UHGV virus genome: UHGV-0350075
From: a virus
Length of the DNA: 53,531 nucleotides
Reading direction: 5' to 3' (one strand)
Below the pieces are notes generated by a model. That model made no database searches, was not told the origin of the DNA, and worked only from the letters and a program-made list of their open reading frames with translations. Numbering within the stretch: position 1 is the first letter of the stretch; each line of letters opens with the position of its first letter. Made by a program: the position numbers and the translations under genes. Positions 32,263-52,238 of this stretch are shown here, one piece after another.

Positions 32263-32265
32263 AAA

Positions 32266-34318: not shown

Positions 34319-34320
34319 GA

Positions 34321-34867: not shown

Positions 34868-34869
34868 GG

Positions 34870-35256: not shown

Positions 35257-35272
35257 TTTGTTTGCTCCACAT

Positions 35273-35302
35273 ACAAAAAAAATCCCCGGCATCGCGCCGG
35301 GG
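35273..35302 (-). terminator. intrinsic terminator/attenuator after major capsid gene
   Basis: CCCCGGC-atcgc-GCCGGGG followed on reverse strand by ATTTTTTTTGT, 20 nt after capsid stop. Confidence 0.55.
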
Positions 35303-35321
35303 AGTTACAGGAAATACAAAA

Positions 35322-36374: not shown

Positions 36375-36393
36375 AGTTTTTCACCTCTTATTA

Positions 36394-36804
36394 TTATGCA
36401 ACGCGGACACGTACAAAATCAGCCGCTTCAAGGGTTACAGCTTCCTGGCAGAAAGCGAAAACCGGATCGGCAGAGTCACCAGTTGCCGCTACTTTAAAGC
36501 CATCAGCACCAATGGTGATACCAGCGTCTTTGGTGTAAGTGCCTTCAGGAAGCAGGATTGCGAATTCGCGGGCTTCTTCTGCGTAGTCAGCGACCACGGA
36601 ATGACCAGCCGGAATTGCATCTTCAATACCCAGGCCTTCATGGTATGCTGGATTAACAACATAAATACGGCCTACGGTATCGGTGGCGGCAACGAATTTA
36701 CCAGCCGTCATTTTTACCGGGGTGCCTGGTTTAAGCTCTGCGGCAGATACTGCGGTTTCGGTAATAGATTTACCGTCAATATTCACACGACGAAAACGGG
36801 CCAT
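36394..36804 (-). CDS. head decoration protein (DUF2190-like)
   Basis: 136 aa just upstream of capsid gene; Gly/Ala-rich beta-type composition. Confidence 0.5.
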   Translation of the reverse strand: MARFRRVNIDGKSITETAVSAAELKPGTPVKMTAGKFVAATDTVGRIYVVNPAYHEGLGIEDAIPAGHSVVADYAEEAREFAILLPEGTYTKDAGITIGADGFKVAATGDSADPVFAFCQEAVTLEAADFVRVRVA

Positions 36805-36814
36805 AATTCACCTC

Positions 36815-38987: not shown

Positions 38988-40377
38988 TATCGCGGAGGGC
39001 GGAATCTTTTTGATTATTCTCTTTACTTTCATCTTCATCTTTATCGTCCTCGTCTTCCACTTCTACTTCCTGCGTTGGCCCCTCATATCCGGCAGCTTCG
39101 CGGATCTCATCACCGCTGAATACCTGCTCACCAGTAGCAAGACATGCCTGATTGATTTGCGCCATCTTGTGTGCCGCTTCCAGTAGTTCGGCTTTGGTCA
39201 TAGCGTTAAGGTCATCCCATAGCACTGATATGTCGCGTGGCTCACTGGTAAGGCGTAGATCTGCCAGTTTGCGGAATAGTTCTTCAAGCTCGCCTCCGAT
39301 TTCCTGGCGGCGGGTCATGCATCGGTTATTGAAATAGCGGAGATCTTCAGTTGATGCTCGTTCACCCTGTTGATTCCCAACTAGGATACGCGTTGGAATG
39401 TCGATACCAGCGGCGGCGGTTTGCAGGTTTACATCATAGGTTGCGGACGGGTCAGATACGGCAGTTACCAGCGGGCTTACTGTTGCGCCCTGTAACGCCA
39501 TCATCACATCATTACCTTTATTCATTTCCGCTGCGGCTTCATTGAATTTTTCGCGTAACTCTGTGACGTCGCAGTCATACGTTGCAGCCAGTGAGCGGAA
39601 GTCAATTTCTTTGTCGAATGAGATGGCAAGCTGGCGTGCGGCGTTCTTCAGGAATGACTCACCACTACCACCTTCCACTTTCTCCAGCGAAACGAAAGCG
39701 TTATAGGATGGCTCAAGGAAAGCGATAGCATCATCAGAATAGTCACCAAAGATAAATATCCGGTCTGGATGTATTTTCCTTGCGATGGTCTTGCTGTTGA
39801 TGCGTTCTTTGTATTCCCACCATGTCGGCAGACCGTAGTTATCGCTATCCGGGTTTTCATCGAAGTCCTTTGGTGTTAGTGCGCCAGCCCATACAGGAGT
39901 GAATTTAGCGATGCCTACCCCTTTTGTTACTGGACGATCCCACGGCTGGTTATCTTTGACGTGAATCAATAGTCCGGCATAACGACCAACCAGGCGACGG
40001 CGATCGCATTCAGCAATAACACGCCAGAATCGGTTATCGAATTGTTTCTTTATTTCTCTTTCCCAGGGTGTTTCCGTTTCCGCTTTCTCGTCTTCAGTGC
40101 CTTCTATCAGCACCGGGCTATCGCGCCAGCATGTGGTGATAATTTTTTCAATGGCCCCGTGAGCAATACCACCGCGACGATACAGCTTATATAGATCAGT
40201 ATAGGTAAGCTCTTCTTTGAATCCGTATTCACTCCACGCGGCGTTACGTTTAGCATCGATCCCCATAGTGAATGGGTTAGCGGCTGCATAGCGGGCAAAG
40301 GCCGCCTGGCGTTGTGACAAGGCAGCATTAACCGCCAATTCTAAATTGGATGGCATAATGTTTACTCCTGAATACAT
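38977..40377 (-). CDS. portal protein
   Basis: 466 aa after terL; acidic C-terminus; size and synteny. Confidence 0.7.
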   Translation of the reverse strand: MYSGVNIMPSNLELAVNAALSQRQAAFARYAAANPFTMGIDAKRNAAWSEYGFKEELTYTDLYKLYRRGGIAHGAIEKIITTCWRDSPVLIEGTEDEKAETETPWEREIKKQFDNRFWRVIAECDRRRLVGRYAGLLIHVKDNQPWDRPVTKGVGIAKFTPVWAGALTPKDFDENPDSDNYGLPTWWEYKERINSKTIARKIHPDRIFIFGDYSDDAIAFLEPSYNAFVSLEKVEGGSGESFLKNAARQLAISFDKEIDFRSLAATYDCDVTELREKFNEAAAEMNKGNDVMMALQGATVSPLVTAVSDPSATYDVNLQTAAAGIDIPTRILVGNQQGERASTEDLRYFNNRCMTRRQEIGGELEELFRKLADLRLTSEPRDISVLWDDLNAMTKAELLEAAHKMAQINQACLATGEQVFSGDEIREAAGYEGPTQEVEVEDEDDKDEDESKENNQKDSALRDNAI

Positions 40378-40402
40378 GTTTACGCGTTGCTACGCGAAAA
40401 AT
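40378..40402. promoter_or_regulatory. conserved 25-bp box GTTTACGCGTTGCTACGCGAAAAAT
   Basis: Immediately upstream of portal start; near-identical to box at 28191..28215. Confidence 0.4.
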
Positions 40403-40434
40403 AGAAAAACTTGTGGGGGATTGTGGGATGGTTT

Positions 40435-41919
40435 TTAAAATCCGCGCAGGCGCTTCGGTAACATGAGGCCCATAGCCTGTGGCTGGCTTAGTTCGGTGAT
40501 ACCCCACACCATTGCATCCATACGGTCAGGGGATTTCTTAGCGGTAGCTGGCACGTATTCCATCATTTGATTTTCCAGCGTGTACAGCTCACCAGTGTGG
40601 GCCACCCTTCCTTGTGCATACAGTGCAGATATTGGTTCGGCACGGGCGAATTTACCCTTGCTTGCGTGCACCTTAACAATGCGGCCTTTGAATCCGGCGT
40701 TACGTAGCGTGGCCTCTGCCATTTCGCCGCCCTGGTTGGTTTCGATAACTATCGCGTCAGCTTCATGGATGTTATAAGCGTTCATTGATGCTTGCGCCCA
40801 GTCGTTAGGAGACATGCGGCCTGAGTAGTCACCGTCTACAGAATACTGAGCGTACTTGCCGCCACCATAAGCGGAACATGCTACGATCCCGGTTTCGTCC
40901 GATTCTTCCGATGATGTTGTCGCCGGGTCAATGGCTATCACGGTGCGGATCTTGTCCTGCGTTATCTGCATCCGGTGCGCTGCGGTTATCATCGCTTCAG
41001 TCCACAATGCACCCTCTTCGTCGAATTTACGCGGGCGCTGCATGTACTGGGCCTCAAATGACCGCCTGTGTGCTTTCAGTCCAGCTTCATGGGCGTCATT
41101 GTGCTTTTTAGGCCATAGCCAGCCGTCTGGCAGGTTGTGAGGAATAGGGATTGCGAACTCGTTTTCAGGGTACAAATCCCGGTAGTCAACGCTGTTGTCG
41201 ATCTTCACTGGCAAGTTCAGGTGATGCCATTTCTCACCACTCCCACCGCGTAGCAGGTAGCCGGACAAATCATCGTAGTGGATGCGCTGCATGATGACGA
41301 TAACAGGCGTCGTTTGCACTGCCAGACGTGAAGCAAGCGTGTCGTTATAGTTAGTGTTTACCTGCTTTCTCACCACGTCAGAGTAAGCGTCGGCGGGCTT
41401 TAATGGGTCGTCGATGATTAACGCACCGTTAAATCCTGGTTCCATATACCCCGCACGGAACCCAGTAACCTGGCCAAGCGATGACGTTGCATACACGCCG
41501 CCACCGTATTCAGTCCACCACATCGATTTACTGTTTGCATCGTTGCGGATCTTCATGGGCCACATTGCCTGATACTCAGGCGTACAGATCATGTTTCTTA
41601 CAGTTGAGGAGTTGAGTAGCGCCAGGTTGTTGGAATAGGAAACGTGAAGGAATCGTGTGCGGGGATTTATTGCGAGGGACCGCGCCATCATGTTGATAGT
41701 GGCGATCATGGTTTTGCCGTACCCTGGGGGGATGTTGATGATGAGTCGGGTTATCTCACCATTGACAACGCGTTGCAGTGCGTCGCGGATAGCTAAATGA
41801 TGGCCTGAGATTAACATCTTCGTTCCGTTCGCTTGCTTATAGAAGTAGCGATTGAAAAACAGGCCATCGTTTTCACATTTGGACTGAATAACTCGTTCTT
41901 TGATTGTCAACATAATCAC
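40435..41919 (-). CDS. terL: terminase large subunit
   Basis: 494 aa; Walker A-like PPGYGKTM; overlaps terS stop (ATGA). Confidence 0.85.
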   Translation of the reverse strand: MIMLTIKERVIQSKCENDGLFFNRYFYKQANGTKMLISGHHLAIRDALQRVVNGEITRLIINIPPGYGKTMIATINMMARSLAINPRTRFLHVSYSNNLALLNSSTVRNMICTPEYQAMWPMKIRNDANSKSMWWTEYGGGVYATSSLGQVTGFRAGYMEPGFNGALIIDDPLKPADAYSDVVRKQVNTNYNDTLASRLAVQTTPVIVIMQRIHYDDLSGYLLRGGSGEKWHHLNLPVKIDNSVDYRDLYPENEFAIPIPHNLPDGWLWPKKHNDAHEAGLKAHRRSFEAQYMQRPRKFDEEGALWTEAMITAAHRMQITQDKIRTVIAIDPATTSSEESDETGIVACSAYGGGKYAQYSVDGDYSGRMSPNDWAQASMNAYNIHEADAIVIETNQGGEMAEATLRNAGFKGRIVKVHASKGKFARAEPISALYAQGRVAHTGELYTLENQMMEYVPATAKKSPDRMDAMVWGITELSQPQAMGLMLPKRLRGF

Positions 41920-42401
41920 ACCTCATCTTCTACTTCCTGAACGATGCGGGCGATCTCTTCTTTTGTGACTTCTACCTGTACGGGCGCTTCTTCCCTGTTG
42001 CCTACGATTTCCTGCGTAACGCGTTCGCCATACTTACGCGGTTGCAGTTTTGCCAATAGCCATTTACGCGTTTCAATCATCAGTTGATGGCGGCGGCATT
42101 CGTCTTTATCGATGTTCTCCGCTGCATCGGCTATATCGATGATCTCATCAGCCAATACCTCAAAACCGATCTCCTTCGCGCGCATGTACATGTCCGAGAA
42201 CTCTGGCACGTCTCTGAACCATTTGAGGATTGTTGAACGCGCAGGCATATCAGGCATCTTCGAAATCTTGTTAATACTATGACCGTCCGCCACCAGCTCG
42301 CAGATTTCTAATGCCTTTTCTTCGGTATAACCATGCGGACGGCCCGTCTTTTTGGCTGCTGGCTTTTTGTCTTCAGCATTTGCCTTTTTAGTGCGGGCCA
42401 T
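41916..42401 (-). CDS. terS: terminase small subunit
   Basis: 161 aa; basic N-terminus with HTH; immediately upstream of terL. Confidence 0.7.
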   Translation of the reverse strand: MARTKKANAEDKKPAAKKTGRPHGYTEEKALEICELVADGHSINKISKMPDMPARSTILKWFRDVPEFSDMYMRAKEIGFEVLADEIIDIADAAENIDKDECRRHQLMIETRKWLLAKLQPRKYGERVTQEIVGNREEAPVQVEVTKEEIARIVQEVEDEV

Positions 42402-42411
42402 ATTTCACCTC

Positions 42412-42495
42412 TTAATATTTGTTGATGATATATACGCAAGCCACAAAACTTGCGCAGTATGTTAATACTTCAAGCCAGTCGAATAGCTCTTTCAT
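42412..42495 (-). CDS. hydrophobic microprotein (27 aa, MKELFDWLEVLTYCASFVACVYIINKY); array member 11
   Basis: Own translation; GAAGGG SD; 10 nt after previous array ORF. Confidence 0.4.
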   Translation of the reverse strand: MKELFDWLEVLTYCASFVACVYIINKY

Positions 42496-42505
42496 TGTTT
42501 ACCCT

Positions 42506-42577
42506 TCACATAATAGAAAGCGCCCATGTAATAAGGACGATAGCCAAAACCATATAGATAAAATCTGACTCTCTCAT
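42506..42577 (-). CDS. hydrophobic microprotein (23 aa, MRESDFIYMVLAIVLITWALSIM); array member 10
   Basis: Own translation; AAGGTGA SD. Confidence 0.4.
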   Translation of the reverse strand: MRESDFIYMVLAIVLITWALSIM

Positions 42578-42591
42578 ATTGTTCACCTTGT

Positions 42592-42660
42592 TTATGCGAA
42601 GAAAACAATAACAACTAACAGCGAACTTATCGCTATGATTAAGAAATCACTGTCAGACAT
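42592..42660 (-). CDS. hydrophobic microprotein (22 aa, MSDSDFLIIAISSLLVVIVFFA); array member 9
   Basis: Own translation; GGGGTGA SD; start overlaps upstream stop. Confidence 0.4.
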   Translation of the reverse strand: MSDSDFLIIAISSLLVVIVFFA

Positions 42661-42727
42661 TGATAATCACCCCTACGATAATTAACGCGGCGATGCATAC
42701 GAATAATACGGCTTCGATAACATCCAT
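42653..42727 (-). CDS. hydrophobic microprotein (24 aa, MDVIEAVLFVCIAALIIVGVIINV); array member 8
   Basis: Own translation; AGGTGAG SD. Confidence 0.4.
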   Translation of the reverse strand: MDVIEAVLFVCIAALIIVGVIINV

Positions 42728-42735
42728 TCGCTCAC

Positions 42736-42804
42736 CTATTGAGTCAGCGAGGTCATGGTGAGAACAATCGCAACAATCAGGAAAAAGAAATCAAGCCATT
42801 TCAT
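42736..42804 (-). CDS. hydrophobic microprotein (22 aa, MKWLDFFFLIVAIVLTMTSLTQ); array member 7
   Basis: Own translation; GGGAG SD; ATGA overlap with upstream ORF. Confidence 0.4.
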   Translation of the reverse strand: MKWLDFFFLIVAIVLTMTSLTQ

Positions 42805-42881
42805 TTTTTAAACTCCCGATAAACATCTACGGCAATGACTACAACTACAGCCACCAGCAATAGCATTTCGTATGCGTTCAT
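42801..42881 (-). CDS. hydrophobic microprotein (26 aa, MNAYEMLLLVAVVVVIAVDVYREFKK); array member 6
   Basis: Own translation; ATGA overlap with upstream ORF. Confidence 0.4.
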   Translation of the reverse strand: MNAYEMLLLVAVVVVIAVDVYREFKK

Positions 42882-42976
42882 TTGATGCTACCCATAACAA
42901 GGCCGATGATGATAATTATGGCGACAATGCCTAACATCATGCCGCACATAATCGCCAGTAATTCGAATATATCCAT
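42878..42976 (-). CDS. hydrophobic microprotein (32 aa, MDIFELLAIMCGMMLGIVAIIIIIGLVMGSIK); array member 5
   Basis: In-frame ATG inside track ORF 42878..43081 (whose TTG start is judged spurious); GGTGA SD. Confidence 0.4.
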   Translation of the reverse strand: MDIFELLAIMCGMMLGIVAIIIIIGLVMGSIK

Positions 42977-42984
42977 GCCGTCAC

Positions 42985-43059
42985 CTATACAACATTCTTC
43001 CACCAGAAATAGATAATGACGGCGACCAACGACCACCAGATGAGATCGTAAATATTCAT
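42985..43059 (-). CDS. hydrophobic microprotein (24 aa, MNIYDLIWWSLVAVIIYFWWKNVV); array member 4
   Basis: Own translation; GAAGGT SD. Confidence 0.4.
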   Translation of the reverse strand: MNIYDLIWWSLVAVIIYFWWKNVV

Positions 43060-43070
43060 GGTGAATACCT

Positions 43071-43145
43071 TCAGCTTTCAATGAATATCATGATCGCCAG
43101 CCATACAGCGACGCAGGCAGAAAGGATAATGAGCGGGTCAATCAT
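43071..43145 (-). CDS. hydrophobic microprotein (24 aa, MIDPLIILSACVAVWLAIMIFIES); array member 3
   Basis: Own translation; GGTGA SD; alternative in-frame ATG at 43157. Confidence 0.4.
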   Translation of the reverse strand: MIDPLIILSACVAVWLAIMIFIES

Positions 43146-43157
43146 ATTGTCACCCAT

Positions 43158-43253
43158 CTAATATTTGCTCTTTACGGTTATCAGCACGGCGATAACAAAG
43201 CCAACCAGAAATATAGATATGCCTATTAATCCGGCGATGGTGCTGTCGTCCAT
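43158..43253 (-). CDS. hydrophobic microprotein (31 aa, MDDSTIAGLIGISIFLVGFVIAVLITVKSKY); array member 2
   Basis: Own translation; TGATTATGGACGA junction with upstream ORF. Confidence 0.4.
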   Translation of the reverse strand: MDDSTIAGLIGISIFLVGFVIAVLITVKSKY

Positions 43254-43255
43254 AA

Positions 43256-43339
43256 TCAACCTACGGGCCATTTTGGGGAAAACATTACAATCGCAGTTCC
43301 AGCCGCGCCGATAAATACACCTAGCAGGAAAGTAAACAT
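43256..43339 (-). CDS. hydrophobic microprotein (27 aa, MFTFLLGVFIGAAGTAIVMFSPKWPVG); array member 1
   Basis: Own translation; GGGGGTGA SD; starts 2 nt after stop of 43342..43884. Confidence 0.4.
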   Translation of the reverse strand: MFTFLLGVFIGAAGTAIVMFSPKWPVG

Positions 43340-43341
43340 AA

Positions 43342-43884
43342 TCACCCCCGTTTAAAGCTCATAACGCGCGGTACAAGCGCTTCTTTTGCTTTCGGCTTAC
43401 GTTTGCCTTTCTTCGCGGTTTTTTCTTCTTCCTTCGGCTGTTCTGCCTGTTCTAATGCCTGCTCAACGACTTCAGCCGCCTGCATTGCCGCTACCTGTGC
43501 TTCGTTTGATTCTGCCAGGATAGGGAAAAATGCATCAAAGATGCGGCCCACCATGTAAGCGTAAGTCTCATTCGCCGGATGAGATGGATCAGTGGTAGCC
43601 ACGACGCCTACATCGCTTAAAACGTGAAATGTAGTGTGCGCCGCTTCATGGACCAGTGTTCCTAACTCATTGTCGAATACTGCGATCACGTAGAAGTTAC
43701 CGCCTTTCTCACCAGTGCAAGTAAGCGTCAATCCTCCTGCCAGTTCGAAATCAGGTTCGATCGGAATTCCTGCCTTTTCGCAAAATTCATAAAACATCTC
43801 GCGAGTCGGGCAGAAGAAAACTGTTGTATGCTCAAAGAGCGGGACTTTGAATTGAGGCAACTTAATGCCTTTACCCTTAGCCAT
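43342..43884 (-). CDS. HExxH-motif protein (putative zinc metallopeptidase) with Lys-rich C-terminus
   Basis: 180 aa; single HExxH (TLVHEAAHTTFHV); first gene of operon with microprotein array and terminase. Confidence 0.5.
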   Translation of the reverse strand: MAKGKGIKLPQFKVPLFEHTTVFFCPTREMFYEFCEKAGIPIEPDFELAGGLTLTCTGEKGGNFYVIAVFDNELGTLVHEAAHTTFHVLSDVGVVATTDPSHPANETYAYMVGRIFDAFFPILAESNEAQVAAMQAAEVVEQALEQAEQPKEEEKTAKKGKRKPKAKEALVPRVMSFKRG

Positions 43885-44162
43885 CAGAATATTCCTCTAT
43901 CCTGAAAAATATAACCCCCGCAAAACTCGACACCGCAGGGAGTGAAAACAGCTATAAAACACTGAAAACGGCGCTTAATCAGTACCGTTTCCAGAATTTT
44001 ATAAAATTGGTGAATGGCGCTTTCTTCTGCCCAGGTAGCGCCGACCTGTTAATGGGATGGATGATCCGGCATTACGTGTTTTCGACTATTCCGCCGTCGC
44101 TCGCGGGAAGGATTGACCCGGTTATGGCTGGCTGGCGGAAACGGCGACACGTCCACGCGCTG

Positions 44163-44633
44163 TTATTCTTTGCGTAAGCACTGCGTTTTGATGTAGTCCT
44201 GTAATCCGGCGATCTTCGCGTCTTTCTCTTTTAGTTGTTCTCTGAGGGATAGATAAGCCGATTCAGCGTCTGGAGTGAGTCTACAGGTGGCTCCATCAAT
44301 GCGGCTGGCGGTTCCGGTATTGTCGAGCAATCGCACTGGTTCGGCGTTGACGTGCAACCTGATAGCACCGCTATCAATGCCAGCGCGAAGATCGGCAATG
44401 TCAGATCTGATAGCTTTAATCTCATCGTGATACCTCTTATCAAGTTTTGACAGTTCGGCGTTTCGCTCCTTCATCTGCTGAATGGTATTACTTGCTGTTT
44501 TTAGTGCGCCTTGCGTCACCGTGACTTCTTGCTGTAACCTTGCTGCCTCCCCCTGGTAATAACATGTAACGGCAGTTAGTCCGGCAATAATGCAAACAAC
44601 AACGGCAATAATTAACGCCTTTACCTTGTCCAT
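44163..44633 (-). CDS. i-spanin (Rz-like)
   Basis: 156 aa; N-terminal TM anchor then coiled coil; start overlaps endolysin 3' end; contains embedded o-spanin. Confidence 0.7.
44231..44425 (-). CDS. o-spanin (Rz1-like lipoprotein) embedded in Rz in another frame
   Basis: Track ORF 44231..44443 trimmed to MRLKL...; lipobox LSGC then Pro-rich short mature peptide. Confidence 0.55.
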   Translation of the reverse strand: MRLKLSDLTLPIFALALIAVLSGCTSTPNQCDCSTIPEPPAALMEPPVDSLQTLNRLIYPSENN

Positions 44634-45112
44634 GTTTCACCCCATTCGCAAACGGCATATTCAACATCACGGCGGTTAATTAACCCTTGCCACTGTTTAC
44701 CACCAGCGTAGATCCAGCGTTTAAGCTGTGCGCACGCCTCTGATTTCTTGCCGTCATTGAGTAGTTTTAATAAGGTTGATGTTTTGAAATTGGTTGCGCC
44801 TACGTTATAGGCGAATGAATAAAGCGCCGCGCGGGTAAAATCTGATATTTCGACTTTAATATATGGGTCAATCGCTTTTGCGGTTTTGTGGAGATCTTTA
44901 CTTAACAAAGCATCGCATTCTGATTGCGTGTAAGTCTTACCTAACATAATGTCTTTTCCGGTATGACCATAACATACAGTCCATACACCGATAACATCAC
45001 GATAGGGATCGTACTCCACGCCCTCTAATGGTTTAACCATCACAGCCGCAATAGCGATCGCCCCACCAGCCGCCGCAGCAATAATCTTATTCTTCAGCGA
45101 TTGGCTAATCAT
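44621..45112 (-). CDS. SAR endolysin (lysozyme-like)
   Basis: Track lists 44621..45193 as '+', but only the reverse strand translates to this protein (checked by hand; TTG at 45193); ATG 45112 gives Gly/Ala-rich SAR segment then E-8aa-D-5aa-T catalytic triad. Confidence 0.8.
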
Positions 45113-45113
45113 G

Positions 45114-45314
45114 TTACTTATTCCCCATTCGCGCGTCGTGTTCCTCTTGCGCTCGCTTATTCTCCTGTGATTTGAAGTAATAATTGACGGCAAATGTGCC
45201 TACGGTTGATAAGATACCCACAAAGACGGCAATGTCATTGATGGTTATCGCGCCGAAAAAAGCAGTTACGGCCCCAGTCACATACGCGCACGCCTCCCGT
45301 ATTCTGTCGAACAT
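45114..45314 (-). CDS. class II holin (pinholin-like)
   Basis: 66 aa; two TM segments plus charged C-terminus; stop 1 nt before endolysin start. Confidence 0.75.
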
Positions 45315-45329
45315 AGATTTACCTCCAAC

Positions 45330-45357
45330 AAAGCAAAAACCCGGCGCGGTGCCGGGT
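45330..45357 (-). terminator. intrinsic terminator 20 nt upstream of holin (tR'-like, candidate Q target)
   Basis: CCCGGC-accgc-GCCGGG followed on reverse strand by TTTTTGCTTTGTT, then GGAGG SD and holin ATG. Confidence 0.55.
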
Positions 45358-45419
45358 AATTACAATTTCGCATTGTTAGGAAATATTTTAATCTATTTGT
45401 TTTTTATGCGCGATTATGG

Positions 45420-45617
45420 TTACAAATCACCAACCTTGCGCCAGTATCCGTGATTAACCATCGTGATAACTTCTTTCGCTGTCATAGGTAAAAATGGCTC
45501 ATGCCACCGATCAAGACTACCAAGACGCATCAAAACGTGCTCACCTTCGAGGCGGTAATAAGCTCGCGTAGCCAATGACTGATAAACGCCATCATATTCA
45601 TGGTCGCTATTTCCCAT
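45420..45617 (-). CDS. hypothetical protein
   Basis: Track ORF 65 aa. Confidence 0.4.
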   Translation of the reverse strand: MGNSDHEYDGVYQSLATRAYYRLEGEHVLMRLGSLDRWHEPFLPMTAKEVITMVNHGYWRKVGDL

Positions 45618-45873
45618 TTTTACGCTCCTTAATGGCTCGCCTGATTTGCTCTGCCGTAGCGTCGAAGAAAGCGATAAACACAGTCACAGGCCAAAAAGGA
45701 ATCTCAAGTCCACCAGGTTCAGCACCGCTAAACTTAATAAAACATGACATCAGGATCGCGCCAGCGATATAAAGCAAAACAGTCACAGCAATAAGGCATT
45801 CAATCATCTTCACCCCCAAGATCGTGATAAATATCGTTAGGGTCTTCTCCATGTTCCTCGCAAAAACGCTCAA
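45607..45873 (-). CDS. small membrane protein
   Basis: Track ORF 88 aa; two hydrophobic segments; true start may be internal (MIECL...). Confidence 0.45.
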   Translation of the reverse strand: MSVFARNMEKTLTIFITILGVKMIECLIAVTVLLYIAGAILMSCFIKFSGAEPGGLEIPFWPVTVFIAFFDATAEQIRRAIKERKNGK

Positions 45874-45931
45874 ATAGCGCCCAATTTTCAGAAAGAAACA
45901 TGATTAATAAATTTTTATACCACTCTTCCAT

Positions 45932-46180
45932 TTAATCATCCTCATCGTCTTCATGTTCAGCCAGGAACTCATCAACTACGCGGTAAGTAACTGGCGGGAT
46001 GTATTCGAAATCATCAGAATCAAGATCAAGCGTCCTGCTGTCGCCATCGTCATCAATCGTATTCATCCCTAACTCACCGAAAGGGCCGTACCCAATGTGG
46101 CCCAGGTATTCGCTTCCAGTAGTAAAGCCAGGATATTCACCTTTACAACGTATTTTGTAAGGTCTATTTGATGCGCTCAA
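45932..46180 (-). CDS. hypothetical acidic protein
   Basis: Track ORF 82 aa; DDEDD C-terminus. Confidence 0.45.
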   Translation of the reverse strand: MSASNRPYKIRCKGEYPGFTTGSEYLGHIGYGPFGELGMNTIDDDGDSRTLDLDSDDFEYIPPVTYRVVDEFLAEHEDDEDD

Positions 46181-46487
46181 TTTTAATTCCCCCTTCTTCT
46201 CCTTCAGTCATTTTATATTCTGCCACTAGTTCAGCTCCAACCAATCCCACATCAGCATTAGCTATGCCAGGGAACTCCAGATAGGCAAAAATAAGGCTTT
46301 TAATTCTATTCAGGTCTTCAAGATGGTCTGCATTAAAAGGCGGTTCAGATACGTGAAAGCATTTAACGTGCGCATCGTCTTCAGTAGCTACACGGAAACA
46401 TACGCCACGTTCACCTGCGAATGGTCCAATTTCTTTATCTTCTGGAAAATTGCCACGAAAAACCTTAACGCTGATAAATTTAGACAT
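46164..46487 (-). CDS. hypothetical protein
   Basis: Track ORF 107 aa. Confidence 0.5.
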   Translation of the reverse strand: MSKFISVKVFRGNFPEDKEIGPFAGERGVCFRVATEDDAHVKCFHVSEPPFNADHLEDLNRIKSLIFAYLEFPGIANADVGLVGAELVAEYKMTEGEEGGIKIERIK

Positions 46488-46510
46488 TTATTATTCCCCT
46501 TCGTAATAAA

Positions 46511-46840
46511 TTAAAACTCCGCACCAGGTAAGCTACGCGCTTTATTTACCGCATCGTGCTTTAACGATAAACCAGCGTAATAATTCATAATCCCCATATT
46601 ACCTACTGGTATTTCATCATTTTCTGCCTTTATTCTTAACAACTGGTTTTTAGTGAAGATCCTGTCTCCATCAGTGATATATAACCAGTCGCCGCGCTTA
46701 CCAACAACAACATGAGATCTGCCTAAACTGTCTTTAAATTCATAATTGCAGAAAACATCATCGTTAGGGACTTCAACAAAACAGCACGCAATAAATTTAG
46801 CGCTTTTCATAATTACACCCTTCTGATTTGATGGGGCCAT
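46511..46840 (-). CDS. hypothetical protein
   Basis: Track ORF 109 aa. Confidence 0.5.
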   Translation of the reverse strand: MAPSNQKGVIMKSAKFIACCFVEVPNDDVFCNYEFKDSLGRSHVVVGKRGDWLYITDGDRIFTKNQLLRIKAENDEIPVGNMGIMNYYAGLSLKHDAVNKARSLPGAEF

Positions 46841-46853
46841 CCGGCCCCGTGTT

Positions 46854-46994
46854 TTATTCTTCTTCGTCTCCCTTGAATCCTAAACACTCCGCGTATTCGT
46901 CAATGCTTAATGCTTCTTCACCTGGTGCCAGCAATTCAAAGTAGCGGGCATATAACTCAAAAACCCATGCCGGATATTTAGCGTTAGCGCTCAT
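46854..46994 (-). CDS. hypothetical acidic protein (46 aa)
   Basis: Own translation MSANAKYPAWVFELYARYFELLAPGEE...; GGAGGGGAGG SD; first ORF after regulatory gap. Confidence 0.35.
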   Translation of the reverse strand: MSANAKYPAWVFELYARYFELLAPGEEALSIDEYAECLGFKGDEEE

Positions 46995-47073
46995 CTTCTT
47001 GCCTCCCCTCCGCCTTTCCGTGGCTTATATATAACAAAATGGCACTGTCGAAACAATGCCATTTCGTATACAT

Positions 47074-47089
47074 TGTGATACAGATCACA
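47074..47089. promoter_or_regulatory. CRP-like palindrome TGTGATACAGATCACA
   Basis: Perfect TGTGA-N6-TCACA in 114-bp gap 46995..47108; flanked by ACAAAATGGCA and TGCCATTT. Confidence 0.45.
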
Positions 47090-47108
47090 TTTATGGTTGT
47101 CCAACGCC

Positions 47109-47315
47109 TCACCACTTAACAAAACGCGCGATCGGTTCCGTACCAAACTGACTGGTAACGTGTCCACGCGCGTAGCAATCCCAATAGCGCCACGCGTCGC
47201 CGTGGTCGTCTTTAATGTATTGGGTGTTAAGTTTATCACCAGTCAGGTGATCTACGGTATATATTCCGCCAACCTCAAAGCATGATGATTTTGATTCAGT
47301 GCATCTGACGAACAT
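47109..47315 (-). CDS. hypothetical protein
   Basis: Track ORF 68 aa. Confidence 0.45.
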   Translation of the reverse strand: MFVRCTESKSSCFEVGGIYTVDHLTGDKLNTQYIKDDHGDAWRYWDCYARGHVTSQFGTEPIARFVKW

Positions 47316-47566
47316 TAGAAAACCCCTTTATAATCGACCGTGTATTTTGCTATCAGTTTCCAGTCGCAATAATTTTCCATGTCGCGCGGTTGCCAGCCTT
47401 TCATGCCTACCGCACTTCGCGCAGCGTGACGGCGATAATCGTCATTAAGATCGGCAATACACCACGGTTGAAGGAAGAACATATAATTCGCTTCGTTAAC
47501 CAGAATAGCCATCATCCGTCCAGTGGCCTTATCTTTCGCCCTGAAATAACTTACCTTGATTTTCAT
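47315..47566 (-). CDS. hypothetical protein
   Basis: Track ORF 83 aa. Confidence 0.45.
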   Translation of the reverse strand: MKIKVSYFRAKDKATGRMMAILVNEANYMFFLQPWCIADLNDDYRRHAARSAVGMKGWQPRDMENYCDWKLIAKYTVDYKGVF

Positions 47567-47777
47567 TTTTAATTACCTCGATCAGCATTTCTTCTTCCAG
47601 GTTAGCCGGACGTTTACGGAATATCCCGGCAAAAACCAGATCATCGAGTAGGTCTTTACGCTTAAATAACCACTCCTTCATTATCACCCCGTCGTCACTG
47701 CGATATACGACGCCGTTTTTCAAAAAATAAAAAGTGTGGGTATTTGTCTGAAGGTATAGATCTTCGTAAACGTCCAT
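47529..47777 (-). CDS. hypothetical protein
   Basis: Track ORF 82 aa. Confidence 0.45.
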   Translation of the reverse strand: MDVYEDLYLQTNTHTFYFLKNGVVYRSDDGVIMKEWLFKRKDLLDDLVFAGIFRKRPANLEEEMLIEVIKNENQGKLFQGER

Positions 47778-47781
47778 GATA

Positions 47782-48009
47782 TTAACCCTCGACTACTTGC
47801 AGCCCGCGCCCCTTGTCGCCCACGAAGTCGCCCAGGCTGAACGTATACGACCACGCCGGATTGATATAATTATCATCAGCACCGTGAGCAATAAGGTCTT
47901 TACCCAAAATGACGCAGGTCACATCATCAGAGTGAACAACGCCTACCGTTTCCCCTACTACGCGTTTTAATGACGGGTATCCGTGATCGTGTAAGAATTT
48001 AACTTTCAT
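47782..48009 (-). CDS. hypothetical protein
   Basis: Track ORF 75 aa. Confidence 0.45.
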   Translation of the reverse strand: MKVKFLHDHGYPSLKRVVGETVGVVHSDDVTCVILGKDLIAHGADDNYINPAWSYTFSLGDFVGDKGRGLQVVEG

Positions 48010-48284
48010 TCCTCTGTCTCCCAGCGGTCTATGCTGATTAAAAAGTCACGGATAGCGTGTCGCTCGTCGCGCGTCGGCTTGCGCTTCCGGTAAATCCTGA
48101 AATCGAACCATGCTTTTTCCTGCTCAAAATCCAGGTCGTAAGCAAGTGCCTCAATGTATCCGCATTCGTGATACTGGTACGCCACGCCAGCACGAACAAA
48201 AAAGCGGGTTTTATCCCGCTTGTGTTCATAGATACGCATATCCACCTCGTTAAGCAGTTGTGTAGCTATCCACCAGCTTTTCAT
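48006..48284 (-). CDS. hypothetical protein
   Basis: Track ORF 92 aa. Confidence 0.45.
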   Translation of the reverse strand: MKSWWIATQLLNEVDMRIYEHKRDKTRFFVRAGVAYQYHECGYIEALAYDLDFEQEKAWFDFRIYRKRKPTRDERHAIRDFLISIDRWETEE

Positions 48285-48480
48285 CTTTCATTCTGGCAAG
48301 CTGTGCGATGTTCATCGTGTAGCCGCCATCAGCGAAAAGCAATTCCGCCGCCGCGCGACGAAAAGCAATATCATCATGGTTACGTGTCCATGTAGCGATC
48401 ACAACGCGTTTCCCGTTAGTGGCGAACATAGACAATTCATTATCAACAACGTCGATAGCCTGCCAGATTTTTAATTCCAT
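48250..48480 (-). CDS. hypothetical protein
   Basis: Track ORF 76 aa. Confidence 0.45.
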   Translation of the reverse strand: MELKIWQAIDVVDNELSMFATNGKRVVIATWTRNHDDIAFRRAAAELLFADGGYTMNIAQLARMKDEKLVDSYTTA

Positions 48481-48836
48481 GATTTATCCCCGTAGATCTT
48501 GAATAGTTCGCGCTCTTCCTGGTCTTCAACTATCCCTATATGCAGATCACGCAGGCGGCGCATTGTGCGGAATCGTGGCCTGAACTCCTGACTGCGTTTA
48601 ATGTATTTGCCGCCAATTGAATAAATATGACCGTATGAGTACCATCTATTGCCTACCCATATTTCATATTCTTTGCCTTCGTAATTGAATTTTATCGTTA
48701 GCTCGCAGACTTCAACTATTAACCCTTTATCAATAATGTCATTGAGCATTTCGTCCCATTCTTTGAGGAATGGTTGTTGATAAAAACCAAAAAGCGTATT
48801 TACAGCGTGGCAAAGGTAATCAATGATTATTTGCAT
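48471..48836 (-). CDS. hypothetical protein
   Basis: Track ORF 121 aa. Confidence 0.5.
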   Translation of the reverse strand: MQIIIDYLCHAVNTLFGFYQQPFLKEWDEMLNDIIDKGLIVEVCELTIKFNYEGKEYEIWVGNRWYSYGHIYSIGGKYIKRSQEFRPRFRTMRRLRDLHIGIVEDQEERELFKIYGDKSWN

Positions 48837-48840
48837 ATTG

Positions 48841-49047
48841 TCACCACATCATATAGTAAACGTTATCATATGCTAATTCGTCTGCGTCTCTTTGACAGTC
48901 GATTGTTGCATCATCTTCGTGCCATTCTTTAGCAAATAAACGCGCCCATTTACGACGCTCACGTTTATTGTGCCGCAGGTCACTAAAAACCATTAAAGCC
49001 TTGTCGTAAGCTCTTACCATGCGTTTCATTCTACTTTTCATCTTCAC
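48841..49047 (-). CDS. hypothetical basic protein
   Basis: Track ORF 68 aa. Confidence 0.45.
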   Translation of the reverse strand: MKMKSRMKRMVRAYDKALMVFSDLRHNKRERRKWARLFAKEWHEDDATIDCQRDADELAYDNVYYMMW

Positions 49048-49246
49048 CCTTCCTTAATTCCTTAATTTCAATATTGCGTAACCGGACGTCGCACGGCGTT
49101 TCAGATTTACCAGTAAGCGCCAGCGCCAGGTTTTCAGGTGTCGTGCAAAGGATTATCTCTTTACCTGTGCTAAATTTAATTTCTATGCGGATCTCGTTTT
49201 CGTCACCGCACAATACACGGTTAATTGACAGGCCAGCTTTTTTCAT
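49031..49246 (-). CDS. hypothetical protein
   Basis: Track ORF 71 aa. Confidence 0.45.
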   Translation of the reverse strand: MKKAGLSINRVLCGDENEIRIEIKFSTGKEIILCTTPENLALALTGKSETPCDVRLRNIEIKELRKGEDEK

Positions 49247-49587
49247 TGCTCACCCCACCTTAACATCCAATTCACATCACATTTAATTGCGAATACCTTC
49301 ACCGGATCAGGACCGAATAATGGATGTGTGATAGTTTTAACTTCATAGCCAAAATAAGGAAGGTTAATAATCCTGTGTTTTTCGTGGTTGGCAGGATATC
49401 CCCATTTAATAATCAGGCGTTCATATTCCCGCCCTTCCAGACGTTTACGCCAATAGTCATTATAAAGCCGGTATTCCTCCACCTTCTTTCCAGTCCATAT
49501 GGCGTGGAAATATTCCCCTTTCAGATTCAAATGCAGGTCTTTACTTGCCATCGCTATGATCCTGTAAACAGTCGTTATAGCCTTCAA
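49243..49587 (-). CDS. ASCH/DUF3850-like domain protein
   Basis: 114 aa; pattern HLNLKGEYFHAIWTGKKVEEYRLYNDYW resembles ASCH-like fold proteins; true start may be MASKDL. Confidence 0.45.
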   Translation of the reverse strand: MKAITTVYRIIAMASKDLHLNLKGEYFHAIWTGKKVEEYRLYNDYWRKRLEGREYERLIIKWGYPANHEKHRIINLPYFGYEVKTITHPLFGPDPVKVFAIKCDVNWMLRWGEQ

Positions 49588-49819
49588 TGTATCCGGTTAA
49601 TCCGGTGTTACTCACTGACCATTCAGCAGAACGGCGCTTGATGGCTTCGTCCATCGTCATAACATCGACCGGATCTCTTAAGCCTATATATTTCCGCAAT
49701 TCCGTAATTATCACCGCCCTTAATTGTTGTGTATTTGAGTACGCCCTAGCCTTATCAGTTATTCCGTTTACAAGATTCCTAAATTCATGTTCTTTTAATT
49801 TAGGTTTCATCATCGTCAC
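49541..49819 (-). CDS. hypothetical protein
   Basis: Track ORF 92 aa. Confidence 0.45.
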   Translation of the reverse strand: MTMMKPKLKEHEFRNLVNGITDKARAYSNTQQLRAVIITELRKYIGLRDPVDVMTMDEAIKRRSAEWSVSNTGLTGYIEGYNDCLQDHSDGK

Positions 49820-50000
49820 CCCGTTTGTAAATTTTGACTGGCTTAATTGGGATGGCTGGTAATTCTCCTTCGTTTAACGCGCTCGCCATACCCAATATTA
49901 AGCGTGCTTCAGTACCAGTGACTTTCTTACACCATGCGCCGCCTGTTTTATCTTGAAATAAGATAACAGCAAACTGATCGTTTATTTCCAGCTTACCCAT
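49800..50000 (-). CDS. hypothetical protein
   Basis: Track ORF 66 aa directly downstream of Q. Confidence 0.45.
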   Translation of the reverse strand: MGKLEINDQFAVILFQDKTGGAWCKKVTGTEARLILGMASALNEGELPAIPIKPVKIYKRGDDDET

Positions 50001-50722
50001 TATTCACCCCGTGTCACTCGTTTAATCTCACTTTCCGCGCGGGCCTCTTCTTTGAATAGCTCCGCTATGGCGTCTTCATAGAAAACCCGGTATTTCTTCC
50101 ACCATGTTGATCTGCTTACCGGAAAAACAAGCTGATTAACCGCCTGCCGGACAAGATCTACAGGGAAACGTGAGTACCCGCGCCCGCCGCAATGCTGGCA
50201 CGTTTTAAACACTGGCATTTCCGCCGCTTCGCTGGCTGCTTTATCCGGTATTTCGCCGCGCCCCTTGCATTGTTTACAATGATTGCGAACCTTTCCATGC
50301 CCCTTGCATTTTTTGCAAAGGTGTTTTTCTCCGTAGTCGTCAAACGTAAATTTATATCCGCCGCACTCCATACAAGTTTTTTCCGTCGCGGCGCTTTGGC
50401 AATAATCCCGAAACGCGAAAACGGCAACAAGAATAATGAGATCATTGCGTTGTGCCTCGTTCAGTTCCATGACGTATTCATAATCTTTTGCCATAGCTCT
50501 TAAACGCTCTGTAAGCAAAACTACGGCCCTGTGTTTTTCGGCTTGTGATAGTTCCATCTTTCCCAAAAAAGCGCTATATCCAAGCTCTACGCGCGATTGC
50601 GCCATACCCGCAGCGGTTAGCGCATCCGTCGTATTAAGAGCGTCCGGGGACGTGCCCCGGCTTTCGTCAGATAATCGCGGTGATTTAGGAAAGTGGAATT
50701 TTAGAATGGATTCTAAATTCAT
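50000..50722 (-). CDS. Q: late-gene antiterminator Q (lambda Q-like)
   Basis: 240 aa; N-terminus MNLESILKFHFPKSPRLSD...AAGMAQS matches lambda Q as recalled; Cys-rich zinc-binding region. Confidence 0.8.
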   Translation of the reverse strand: MNLESILKFHFPKSPRLSDESRGTSPDALNTTDALTAAGMAQSRVELGYSAFLGKMELSQAEKHRAVVLLTERLRAMAKDYEYVMELNEAQRNDLIILVAVFAFRDYCQSAATEKTCMECGGYKFTFDDYGEKHLCKKCKGHGKVRNHCKQCKGRGEIPDKAASEAAEMPVFKTCQHCGGRGYSRFPVDLVRQAVNQLVFPVSRSTWWKKYRVFYEDAIAELFKEEARAESEIKRVTRGE

Positions 50723-50904
50723 TATTTGCCCTCATAACGTGCCGCCAGCCGTTTACGATCAGAAATGGATTGCACCAGCTTTCTTTCGAACTCTTTCAGC
50801 GCAAGTAATTCGCGCATGTGGAAAGCCTGGATTTGTCGGACCGTCTCTAAATCACGCTCGTCGCGCTGAATATCTATTTGCAGATCTTTAACTTCGTTTT
50901 TCAT
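50722..50904 (-). CDS. hypothetical coiled-coil protein
   Basis: Track ORF 60 aa between rusA and Q. Confidence 0.45.
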   Translation of the reverse strand: MKNEVKDLQIDIQRDERDLETVRQIQAFHMRELLALKEFERKLVQSISDRKRLAARYEGK

Positions 50905-51308
50905 TGCTCACCCCACATATTAGTCGCGTATTCGTCAATATCCGGTAGTAGGTCGCCGCGTTCGCGGATCTTAATAAACAAGCGTCCGCCTTTTACCTTC
51001 CGGCAGCGAACAATTTTTATTGAGTCGATTTGCCCGTCATCCTTCCAGAATCCGGCATAAGTAAGGCTGTCAAAAAGGCATTTAGGGATATTATCCAGAT
51101 CTCTGATCCGGTTATCCGGCGGCGCGGCGTAAATGGCAATTGCCAGTCGGCAAGGTAGGTTAATATTTAAATTTAATAGCTCGATGATGTCTCTTACTTG
51201 TTCCCTGTATTCCTTCCCCACTTTGCTGATATAGTGAAAACCGCGCGAATGTCGGTAATAGCGATTATTCGATGGCGGGTAAGGCAGGCTAAAAGAATAT
51301 TCATTCAT
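50901..51308 (-). CDS. rusA: Holliday junction resolvase RusA
   Basis: 135 aa; close to E. coli RusA as recalled (PPSNNRYYRH, RDLDN, FDSLTYAGFWKDD, KGGRL). Confidence 0.85.
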   Translation of the reverse strand: MNEYSFSLPYPPSNNRYYRHSRGFHYISKVGKEYREQVRDIIELLNLNINLPCRLAIAIYAAPPDNRIRDLDNIPKCLFDSLTYAGFWKDDGQIDSIKIVRCRKVKGGRLFIKIRERGDLLPDIDEYATNMWGEQ

Positions 51309-51910
51309 GCTGCCTTTCTCCTTAAGGCGTCCAATTTAGCCTGATAGATGTTTATTAGCTCCTTACATTCTGCAATCGTCCATTTATGCGTATCATTGTT
51401 GTTCTCCAGAGCTACCACCCTGGCGAGGCCAATTTTTCGAATCAGCGCCGGGCGATACCCTCCGATGTTGCCGTCTAGTGTCTGGTTGCAGTGCCTACAT
51501 TGCTTATGGCAATTATCCTCGTTGAAGCGAAGGTGTCCGGCGGCGGCTACCGTCCTGTAATGACCTGCATCCCACCCGCATTGCTCACCGTAGTAAGTCC
51601 CGCAAGATATACACGGCAAGCGCGCGTCACGTTCGCGAATATAGGCGTTAAATACATTTTGAACTTGTTTGATCCAATAACTACGCGGATTTAACTGTTT
51701 ACGCTTCCGGTTGCGTTCTTCCCTCTGGCTATCACGGCGTTTCTTCCGCTCCATAGCCTTCATAGCCTTCTCACGGTCGCGGCATAGCTGGTCAAACTTC
51801 AGTTCTTCCAGACATTCATCGCTGCACCACGTTTGATTGTGATATTTAGGCTCAAAAAAAACGCCGCAGCATTTGCAACGGCGTCTTATGGGTTTTTTAG
51901 GGTTTTGCAT
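51305..51910 (-). CDS. ninG: NinG/Rap recombination protein
   Basis: Track ORF (GTG 52000) trimmed to ATG 51910; RRRCK..C, PRSYWIKQ, LPCISCGT, WDAGHYRT, LRFNE, HKQC as in lambda NinG. Confidence 0.8.
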   Translation of the reverse strand: MQNPKKPIRRRCKCCGVFFEPKYHNQTWCSDECLEELKFDQLCRDREKAMKAMERKKRRDSQREERNRKRKQLNPRSYWIKQVQNVFNAYIRERDARLPCISCGTYYGEQCGWDAGHYRTVAAAGHLRFNEDNCHKQCRHCNQTLDGNIGGYRPALIRKIGLARVVALENNNDTHKWTIAECKELINIYQAKLDALRRKAA

Positions 51911-52101: not shown

Positions 52102-52222
52102 AATGCTCTCTCCTTTTCAGGTGATTTCTACGCATTTCAGCGCTGCCGGATTTTTAAAGAGCATTTTGTTTGCTTGAAGTATACAAAATGGATACGTGCT
52201 AACAAGGTGTAAAGCGCCATTA

Positions 52223-52238
52223 TGTGACATTCATCACA
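52223..52238. promoter_or_regulatory. CRP-like palindrome TGTGACATTCATCACA
   Basis: Perfect TGTGA-N6-TCACA in 159-bp gap 52102..52260; flanked by GTATACAAAATGG and GCCATTTTGTAAAC. Confidence 0.45.

Follow-up and report, generated by a model that had tools for sequence, protein, structure and literature searches.

A probable lambda-type late cassette in front of the lysis genes and separated from Q by 4.6 kb in a virus genome of the mEp021 (mEpimmI) type

Background

Where does the Q antiterminator of a lambda-like phage act when its gene is not followed closely by the lysis genes? This question is raised by the UHGV virus genome UHGV-0350075, whose whole stretch of 53,531 nucleotides (nt) is called the window in this paper. 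Over shared blocks, the window is 87-91% identical to the mEp021 (mEpimmI) group of temperate coliphages, with MagusPhagus, mEp554, mEp044, mEp010, mEp013, mEp021 and mEp515 as the matching members, and from about 43 to 53.5 kb every gene lies on the minus strand. In this part of the window, an array of small genes separates the Q gene (50000..50722, minus strand) from the holin gene (45314..45114, minus strand; PF16080, HP1 family), with which the late operon is predicted to open. Between the Q stop codon and the holin start codon there are 4,685 bp, in agreement with the 4.7 kb given in the original prediction for this locus, which had been made from the sequence alone. The premise of that prediction, that lambda Q is followed directly by PR', tR' and S, is a loose one, since in lambda about 400 nt separate tR' from the S gene that follows.

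Two solutions had been offered there. Either the late promoter with its Q utilization (qut) site lies far downstream of Q, at 46995..47108 or 45360..45420, or the small genes are themselves the first late genes. The results presented here favour the first solution, with 45360..45420 as the site, where a PR'-like arrangement recurs in all relatives examined; the candidate at 46995..47108 did not hold. It is probable that a lambda-type cassette, comprising PR', a Q-binding element (QBE), a pause element and a terminator, has been displaced from Q and stands 4.6 kb away, ahead of the lysis genes, the interval being filled by hypervariable early cargo. A displaced cassette of this kind is a variant of the known lambda-type Q system.

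In a recent structural paper, the Q gene and its target promoter are defined as an adjacent module, with a PR' unit adjoining Q as part of the lambdoid cassette (PMC9388147). No such unit adjoins Q in the window, and the next gene overlaps the Q stop codon. For the mEpimmI group, PMC11893012 describes an N-like protein (Gp17), three nut sites and a 'Q-lambda-like' protein, and reports these phages to equal the lambdoid phages in their frequency in human faecal samples. The location of the late promoter or of qut was not found in its searchable text, and a literature search for displaced qut sites returned nothing relevant.

A PR'-like cassette before the holin gene

Lambda PR' reads TTGACT-17-TAAATT-TGACTC-AACGATGGG. 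Its transcript begins with the first A of AACGAT (+1; record position 44587), and AACGAT is a -10-like sigma70-dependent pause element at +1..+6. The lambda QBE lies between the -35 and -10 elements. It is 13 bp long, and its contacts have been described (PMC9388147).

In the window, the pre-holin gap (45315..45419) contains a similar region, a compact module about 90 nt long. On the minus strand, its order is AAACAAATAGAT, TAAAAT, ATTTCCT, AACAATGCG, AAATTGTAATT, ACCCGGCACCGCGCCGGGT, TTTTGCTTTGTT, GGAGG, TAAATCT and ATG. The hexamer TAAAAT (45385..45390, minus strand) is the predicted PR' -10 element; it matches the consensus at 5 of 6 positions, is invariant in mEp-type sequences and is replaced by TATAAT in the more distant locus L010. 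Seven nt after it stands AACAAT (45372..45377, minus strand), the predicted sigma70-dependent pause element, which is invariant in relatives; the equivalents are AATAAT in L010, AATGAT in L015, and AACGAT in L018, L019, L058, L059 and lambda. From the analogy with lambda, transcription is predicted to start at A45377, the first A of AACAAT, and to pause near +16/17 (45362/45361).

A tR'-like intrinsic terminator follows at 45331..45357 (minus strand, +21..+47 of the predicted transcript), consisting of a stem at 45357..45339 and then TTTTGCTT. Counted from A45377, the hairpin occupies +21..+39, the U tract ends at +43 (45335), the Shine-Dalgarno (SD) sequence lies at about +52 and the holin ATG at +64. 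Upstream of the -10 element, AAACAAATAGAT (45391..45402, minus strand) covers -25..-14 relative to the predicted start and forms the upstream edge of the conserved block. Conservation among mEp sequences begins at -25 (AAACAAAYRGAT), and the homology breakpoint at 45402/45403, where the lysis block has its upstream edge, precedes the holin ATG by 88 nt and the hairpin by 45 nt. Within this element, AAACAAA..GAT is invariant in mEp-type sequences, and AAACAA is also present in the cousins L013 and L010. As AAACAAAYRGAT at -25..-14 sits where a QBE is expected, it is regarded as a candidate QBE.

Recurrence across the Q lineage

In 13 loci of the Q lineage, the interval between the Q start and the holin ATG was searched for the motif TAnnnT-N6/7-AAYRAT, and one match at the equivalent position was found in all 13. 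In the window, in six isolated phages (L001-L006) and in two divergent E. coli prophages (L008 and L009), the motif lies about 75 nt before the holin ATG; the Q genes of these phages and prophages have 82-91% DNA identity to that of the window. L013, with Q 76% identical, carries TAAAAT-ATCCTC-AACAAT about 70 nt before the holin ATG. The cassette is retained beside a divergent holin allele in L008 and L009, and also in L013. In L010-L012, where Q is 50% identical, TATAAT-TCCCTC-AATAATGG stands about 87 nt before the holin ATG and the hairpin is a different one, AAGGCTGG...CCGGCCTT plus a T-run. The phage that these loci represent is about 53 kb long, shares the architecture and carries about 3 kb of small genes downstream of Q.

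More distant relatives have the motif in another place. In the Citrobacter-type locus L015 (Q 40% identical), the counterpart is TTTACA-17-TAATCT-GAAACC-AATGATGG, with a terminator behind it; it is found 76 nt past the Q stop, and about 460 nt separate it from the lysis genes. Four further loci were fetched after the pattern had been fixed. Three of them (L018, L019 and L059; Q about 32% identical) carry TTTAC(T/A)-16-TA(A/G)TTT-CT(T/C)TCT-AACGATGGG at 65 nt after Q, the fourth (L058, from Xenorhabdus) has TTGACA-17-CATCAT-TGCTCT-AACGATGGG, and all four have a terminator within about +25..+70. In these five loci the motif adjoins Q and is 0.5-1.2 kb away from the lysis genes. Therefore, as judged from sequence comparison, the arrangement tracks the Q lineage and not the holin.

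Wider scans gave the same picture. Among 5,426 E. coli genomes, Q was found in 35 and the pre-holin element in 35, in the same strains wherever both were listed, and the spacing between Q and the element in these 35 prophages is 4.06-7.15 kb. An exact-pattern scan of IMG/VR returned 38 further contigs, with the element before a holin in 38 of 38; wherever the fetched locus reaches Q, Q lies 3.0-6.7 kb upstream of the element. A scan of genome contigs with the Q protein yielded no confirmed relatives.

L010-L012, together with L017, are Logan metagenome contigs of about 12-54 kb that represent a sister lineage with Q only 46-50% identical. Their gene order is ERF-SSB ... Dam ... NinG-RusA-Q, the small-gene array, the cassette and an HP1-type holin. 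This lineage is a useful outgroup for the mEpimmI group.

The Q antiterminator

The Q protein of the window belongs to the lambda-Q family. It comprises 240 amino acids and matches Pfam PF03589, 'Antitermination protein Q', with 100.6 bits (cut-off 26.7). Along its full length it aligns to lambda Q (7ubm_Q, E 6e-37), residues 1-114 with 1-114 and residues 148-238 with 117-207. An AlphaFold model of Q (mean predicted local distance difference test score, pLDDT, 79.9) has as its best PDB match 7ubn_Q (E 4e-15; template modelling score, TM, 0.77, target-normalised), which is Q-lambda in the engaged loading complex, and the model superposes on Q-lambda there. According to this model, the protein has the Q-lambda fold, a helical body with a helix-turn-helix motif plus a zinc-ribbon arm. 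The four cysteines of the lambda zinc ribbon are invariant among the Q homologues compared. Moreover, the N-terminal segment, which in lambda Q forms the RNA-exit nozzle (PMC9388147), is well conserved in the alignment of the window protein to lambda Q. It is most likely that the Q of the window works as lambda Q does.

A difference from lambda Q lies in the arm, a zinc ribbon of residues 114-152 (PMC9388147). At its base, an insertion of 33 amino acids, residues 115-147 (50282..50380, minus strand), adds two CxxC pairs, so that Q has four CxxCxGxG-like motifs in total and a weak match to DnaJ_CXXCXGXG. The length of the insertion varies from 33 to about 75 amino acids among Q homologues, and lambda Q has none. 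The insertion may change the geometry of the site, because in lambda the arm contacts the QBE and sigma region 4. Additionally, a motif TWW..YR is common to the Q proteins of the window, L013, L010 and P0011 and absent from those of lambda, L015 and L018. From the sequence, this motif appears to fall in the recognition-helix region of the helix-turn-helix, and its sharing runs parallel to the shared AAACAA in the candidate QBE.

Proposed action of Q at the displaced cassette

If the cassette works as predicted, Q would bind the DNA element AAACAAATAGAT (45402..45391) in the late promoter and would load onto RNA polymerase held at the sigma70-dependent promoter-proximal pause, leading to terminator resistance. 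Without Q, RNAs of about 43 nt would end at the terminator. With Q, transcription would read through into the holin, endolysin, spanin, terminase and structural genes, past terminators such as 35303..35283. The array genes, translationally packed onto Q, would make up the end of the early operon, through which the N-like Gp17 loaded at nutR2 would keep transcription going, and the N-modified polymerase would pass the internal array terminators at 47073..47027 and 48221..48202.

The composition of the late region suits such a scheme. On the minus strand of 28000..45400, sigma70 promoter-like matches are depleted (11 found versus 26.9 +/- 5.3 expected), and strong minus-strand terminators exist inside the region, for example at 35303..35283 (9 bp, T8 run). 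Given this depletion and these internal terminators, the late region fits a single long operon dependent on processive antitermination.

The pre-holin terminator and holin translation

The hairpin before the holin, ACCCGGC-ACCGC-GCCGGGT followed by TTTTGCTTTG (45357..45339), has a folding energy of -13.7 kcal/mol. The original prediction had placed a strong terminator 20 nt before the holin SD; the terminator stands, and the distance was approximate, being 12 nt to GGAGG and 24 nt to the ATG. The stem is identical in 7 phages and in nearly all of the 38 viral contigs, with most differences in the loop, and different hairpins occupy the equivalent position in L010, L015, L018 and L058. As a class, terminator-like matches are not enriched in the region (13 found versus 10.4 expected). 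In the GenBank record of mEp021 the pre-holin hairpin is annotated as TERM_5, within a numbering from TERM_1 to TERM_5. The legend of Figure 7 in PMC11893012 lists t1, t2 and t5 as experimentally demonstrated terminators, and from the matching numbering TERM_5 appears to be the t5 of that legend.

When the RNA is extended upstream of the predicted start, the predicted folds contain a long helix that encloses the terminator and in which the pyrimidine-rich discriminator pairs with the holin SD. The regions folded were 45305..45395 (minus strand) of the window, 13752..13856 of L010, 17215..17305 of L013, and L008. With the extended RNA, the predicted probability that the SD is unpaired falls from 0.82 to 0.08 in L010, from 0.27 to 0.00 in L013 and from 0.58 to 0.02 in L008; such sequestration is not predicted for the window or mEp021. 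The helix might keep the holin from being translated on early transcripts that read through. It is a possibility, for the modelled folds of L010, L013 and L008 and not for the window, that only cassette-initiated transcripts leave the holin ribosome-binding site unpaired.

These folds bear on a different explanation, in which the pre-holin element is a terminator of the early operon combined with translational control of the holin, the likeness to PR' is coincidental and Q acts elsewhere. The predicted SD sequestration in L010, L013 and L008 speaks for it, as does the fact that the core motif alone is not statistically rare. The missing sequestration in the window and mEp021 speaks against it, and so do the five loci in which the motif adjoins Q at a distance from the lysis genes and the lack of an alternative conserved site between Q and the late genes. 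This explanation is considered very unlikely.

The region between Q and the holin

The array between Q and the holin (45420..50000, minus strand) consists of 19 small co-oriented open reading frames (ORFs) arranged head to tail, most of whose stops and starts overlap or abut; the original prediction had described the array correctly and counted about 18 genes. The two gaps to which its candidate sites belong, 46995..47108 and 45315..45419, are indeed the only array gaps of more than 25 nt. PHROG families of unknown function are matched by 17 of the 19 ORFs, and a Pfam search of the 19 proteins gave no match above threshold. The array varies from 1.9 to 6.5 kb in relatives. Between the Q stop and the holin ATG, mEp021 has 2.0 kb and mEp013 has 3.3 kb, mEp554 and mEp044 have 4.5-4.8 kb, mEp010 has 5.7 kb and MagusPhagus has 6.1 kb. 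It can be seen that the array is a hypervariable mosaic between relatives, and the combination found in the window is its own.

Comparison with six phage relatives shows only three blocks common to all: Q with its upstream genes (49998..51388, minus strand), a core of five small genes (47314..48493, minus strand) and the lysis block (44013..45402, minus strand), the edge of which includes the cassette. By this comparison, therefore, no other block between Q and the holin can be a universal site. The gap 46995..47108 was rejected as a qut site. It is an optional module, and two phages with the same Q, mEp021 and mEp013, are without it; it lacks a pause-element motif, and it is mainly a strong terminator plus a CRP-like palindrome. 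This terminator, an intrinsic hairpin with a T-run (47027..47073, minus strand; -23.5 kcal/mol, z -7.3), is conserved in 4 relatives and annotated as an ARNold terminator in mEp554, mEp044 and mEp010. A second internal terminator of the array lies at 48221..48202.

The second solution offered at the outset, that the small genes are the first late genes, would place the late promoter and qut either in the terminal part of Q, at or within its 3' end, or in the next gene. The pre-holin hairpin would then be one internal attenuator among several, all of them disregarded by polymerase that Q has modified. The junction itself gives this idea some appeal: the first array gene overlaps the Q stop as TAATG, leaving no gap after Q, and immediately after the Q stop the sequence GTGACA-16-TAAGCT-7-AACGAT (49977..49995, minus strand) mimics the core of lambda PR'. 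The DNA directly after the Q stop, though, is not conserved across the group, with different genes there in mEp021 and mEp044, and the look-alike occurs in only 6 of the 13 loci, being absent from mEp021, mEp044, L009, L010-L013 and L015. It was rejected as the late promoter, as it lies in the first codons of an optional gene of 66 amino acids and has no terminator. The likeness at 49995 is probably coincidental, and it could also be a remnant of an ancestral Q-adjacent cassette. No other motif match occurs between Q and the holin in any locus scanned.

A further point in favour of this second solution concerns a protein of the core block. The ORF at 47529..47777 (minus strand; 82 amino acids; no PHROG or Pfam match) is a homologue of mEp021 gp41, which was found in virions and annotated as 'virion structural protein' from mass spectrometry. 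This finding fits late expression of the array better and thus counts against the displaced cassette with early cargo. Ssb was also detected in virions in the same study, so the detection of gp41 is no proof of late expression. Altogether, transcription of the small genes as the first late genes is disfavoured and considered quite unlikely.

Several features point instead to the array as a distal part of the early operon. Besides its tight packing onto Q, an intergenic boxA-like sequence, TGCTCTTTAAAAA (52151..52163, minus strand), lies upstream of ninF-ninG-rusA-Q and is conserved in mEp021. At 12 of 13 positions it is identical to the E. coli rrn boxA. The nutR2 site of the N-like Gp17 system is placed downstream of the methyltransferase gene in PMC11893012, and TGCTCTTTAAAAA is likely to be this nutR2, driving the early operon through Q into the array. 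Moreover, the arrays of the cousins hold genes of nin-region type (Lar, PAPS-reductase-like, HAD/PNKP). Because of this packing, the upstream nutR2-like boxA and the nin-type genes of the cousins, the array is probably the distal part of an early, nin-like operon, with N-like-dependent cargo and not late genes.

Within the core block itself, one more promoter was considered. A sigma70-like sequence at 48466..48439 (CTGGCA-16-GATAAT) could be the late promoter, with the hairpins at 48363..48343 and 48221..48202 as tR'. It matches the promoter consensus at 9 of 12 positions, has terminator-like hairpins at about +70 and +210, and in mEp021, where the core block abuts the Q stop, would lie 30-55 nt after the stop, much like lambda PR'. 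The site was rejected as PR' all the same. It is inside conserved protein-coding ORFs with PHROG families and has no AAYRAT pause element, promoter-like matches in the region occur at chance frequency (17 found versus 18.1 expected), and the hairpin at 48363 is weak (z -1.8). A late promoter at this site is regarded as extremely improbable.

Weak points of the cassette and the -35 element

Several results weigh against the displaced cassette as a lambda-type late promoter, and they are gathered here. The core motif alone is not rare, with 7 matches in the window versus 6.5 expected. A position weight matrix built from the conventional cassettes only ranks the site fourth of about 214,000 positions, under the maxima of shuffled sequences; the higher matches at 15109, 32359 and 37307 (inside an ORF of 436 amino acids) are without cassette context. 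An nhmmer profile of six conventional cassettes places the site second (E 0.44), through its terminator only, and the top match, 1250..1168, is a GC hairpin inside a coding ORF. The pattern was defined post hoc, after lambda, the window, L010 and L015 had been seen. Furthermore, the spacing between the -10 and the pause element is 7 nt in most mEp sequences versus 6 nt in lambda, L010 and L013.

A further difficulty is the -35 element. In the window it reads TCGCGC, which matches at 2 of 6 positions at any spacing of 16-18 nt; elsewhere, the commoner mEp variant TTGTGG/TTGTAG matches at 3 of 6, L013 has TCGCGC and L010 has AAGCGC (1 of 6). An extended -10 is absent from the window, other mEp sequences, L013 and L010. 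Owing to the weak -35 and the lack of an extended -10, a consensus promoter scan makes no call at the cassette. All conventional relatives have a -35 with 4-6 of 6 matches. A poor -35 confined to the displaced cassettes is the main unexplained feature.

The weight of the cassette argument comes from its position, the accompanying terminator and the recurrence in lineages with unrelated surroundings. The motif was observed at about 6.5e-5 per position per strand, which gives a probability of about 0.007-0.035 for a chance match in a given gap of 100-500 nt. For four independent lineages, the joint chance would be of the order of 1e-8, an optimistic figure, given that the pattern was in part selected post hoc.

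The poor -35 motivates a reading in which Q uses a promoter-less or promoter-poor qut. Elongation complexes carrying sigma70 would come from the early operon, pause at TAAAAT/AACAAT and be loaded with Q there, so that the early transcript becomes the late one; in a variant, QBE-bound Q would recruit polymerase. It is known that sigma70 is able to act on elongation complexes in trans. All displaced cassettes are without a usable -35, as opposed to the 4-6 of 6 matches in the five conventional lineages; the early operon also runs gapless into the cassette, and in L013 the stop codon of the upstream ORF overlaps the -10 element. On the other hand, the geometry of -10, 6-7 nt and pause element corresponds exactly to a lambda-type promoter together with its initial transcribed region, and in L010 the -10 is a perfect TATAAT. 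Polymerase coming from upstream should already be modified by the N-like protein, so that Q would be redundant. The Q proteins characterised so far all work on promoter-proximal complexes (PMC9388147). A promoter-less or promoter-poor qut is considered unlikely, and a correspondingly low probability is given to the broader proposal that Q uses no conventional late promoter, whether it loads on arriving complexes or recruits polymerase to a -10-only promoter. If this were true, late expression would be coupled to ongoing early transcription and not to a constitutive PR'. The displaced lambda-type cassette, with its own predicted start site, remains the preferred interpretation.

Comparison with known systems

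The likeness of the window to lambda includes a homologous Q, in sequence and in fold, and the same order of -10, 6-7 nt, AAC(G/A)AT at the transcript start, intrinsic terminator and lysis genes. The differences are mainly those of distance and of the promoter core. From the Q stop to the cassette there are 78 nt in lambda and 4,623 nt to the predicted cassette in the window; the terminator ends at about +194 in lambda and about +43 in the window; and the first late gene begins at about +600 in lambda and +64 in the window. The -35 is TTGACT in lambda versus TCGCGC in the window, and the -35-like TTGACT beside the lambda pause element is replaced by ATTTCC. The window Q also differs by its 33-residue insertion, which sets a second pair of CxxC motifs in the DNA-contacting arm.

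The conventional lambdoid prophages L015 (Citrobacter), L018, L019 and L059 (Serratia-type) and L058 (Xenorhabdus) share the insertion-bearing Q subfamily with the window. Their Q proteins are 32-40% identical to that of the window and have the arm insertion, and their cassettes are compact, with a -10, a pyrimidine-rich discriminator of 6 nt, AAYGATGG and a terminator that starts at about +25 to +45. They differ from the window in that the cassette follows the Q stop by 60-76 nt, precedes the lysis genes by 0.5-1.2 kb and has a good -35 (TTTACA, TTTACT or TTGACA). The phages of the mEp021/mEpimmI group (GenBank MH706966, PP180001-5 and PP925836) have the same Q, lysis cassette and nutR2 region as the window, and their pre-holin hairpin is annotated as TERM_5 or as ARNold terminators.

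Several kb of accessory genes between Q and S/R/Rz are also found in Shiga-toxin phages such as 933W. There the cargo (tRNAs, stx and others) lies downstream of PR'-qut-tR' and is hence Q-dependent and late. In the window, by contrast, the cargo lies upstream of the cassette and is, because of this position, predicted to be early and Q-independent.

If the proposed arrangement is true, a common phage group has a split module of Q and its promoter, with 2-7 kb of fast-changing cargo between regulator and target. This cargo would be under early and not late control, the opposite of the Shiga-toxin phages, which would shift the predicted timing of unknown genes. With its predicted leader of 43 nt and no recognisable -35, the very compact natural cassette is also a test case for the promoter needs of a lambda-type Q. 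For annotation, a -10, 6-7 nt, AAYRATG and a terminator within about 70 nt provide a signature for the start of the late operon in this Q lineage.

Other features of the window

The holin SD, GGAGG, is at 45326..45322 (minus strand). Downstream of the holin lie the endolysin gene (44621..45112, minus strand; PF00959), for which relatives annotate a lysozyme gene of 492 nt, and the Rz i-spanin gene (44163..44633, minus strand; PF03245), with an embedded ORF for an Rz1-like lipoprotein (44231..44443, minus strand) taken from the ORF list. Rfam and tRNA scans of the whole window gave no matches.

A GC-rich hairpin with a T-run on the plus strand, at 46831..46850 between two minus-strand genes, opposes all local genes. 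This terminator may block antisense transcription.

Perfect TGTGA-N6-TCACA palindromes, the core of the CRP-site consensus, occur 3 times in the window versus 0.06 expected. They are located at 2267..2282, 47074..47089 and 52223..52238 and are conserved in only some relatives. The second stands just upstream of the strong hairpin in the gap 46995..47108. The third belongs to the nutR2 intergenic region, where a promoter-like TTGTTA-16-TATACT (52205..52178, minus strand) follows it about 60 nt downstream. These palindromes could serve as CRP sites or, alternatively, as operators for a phage regulator.

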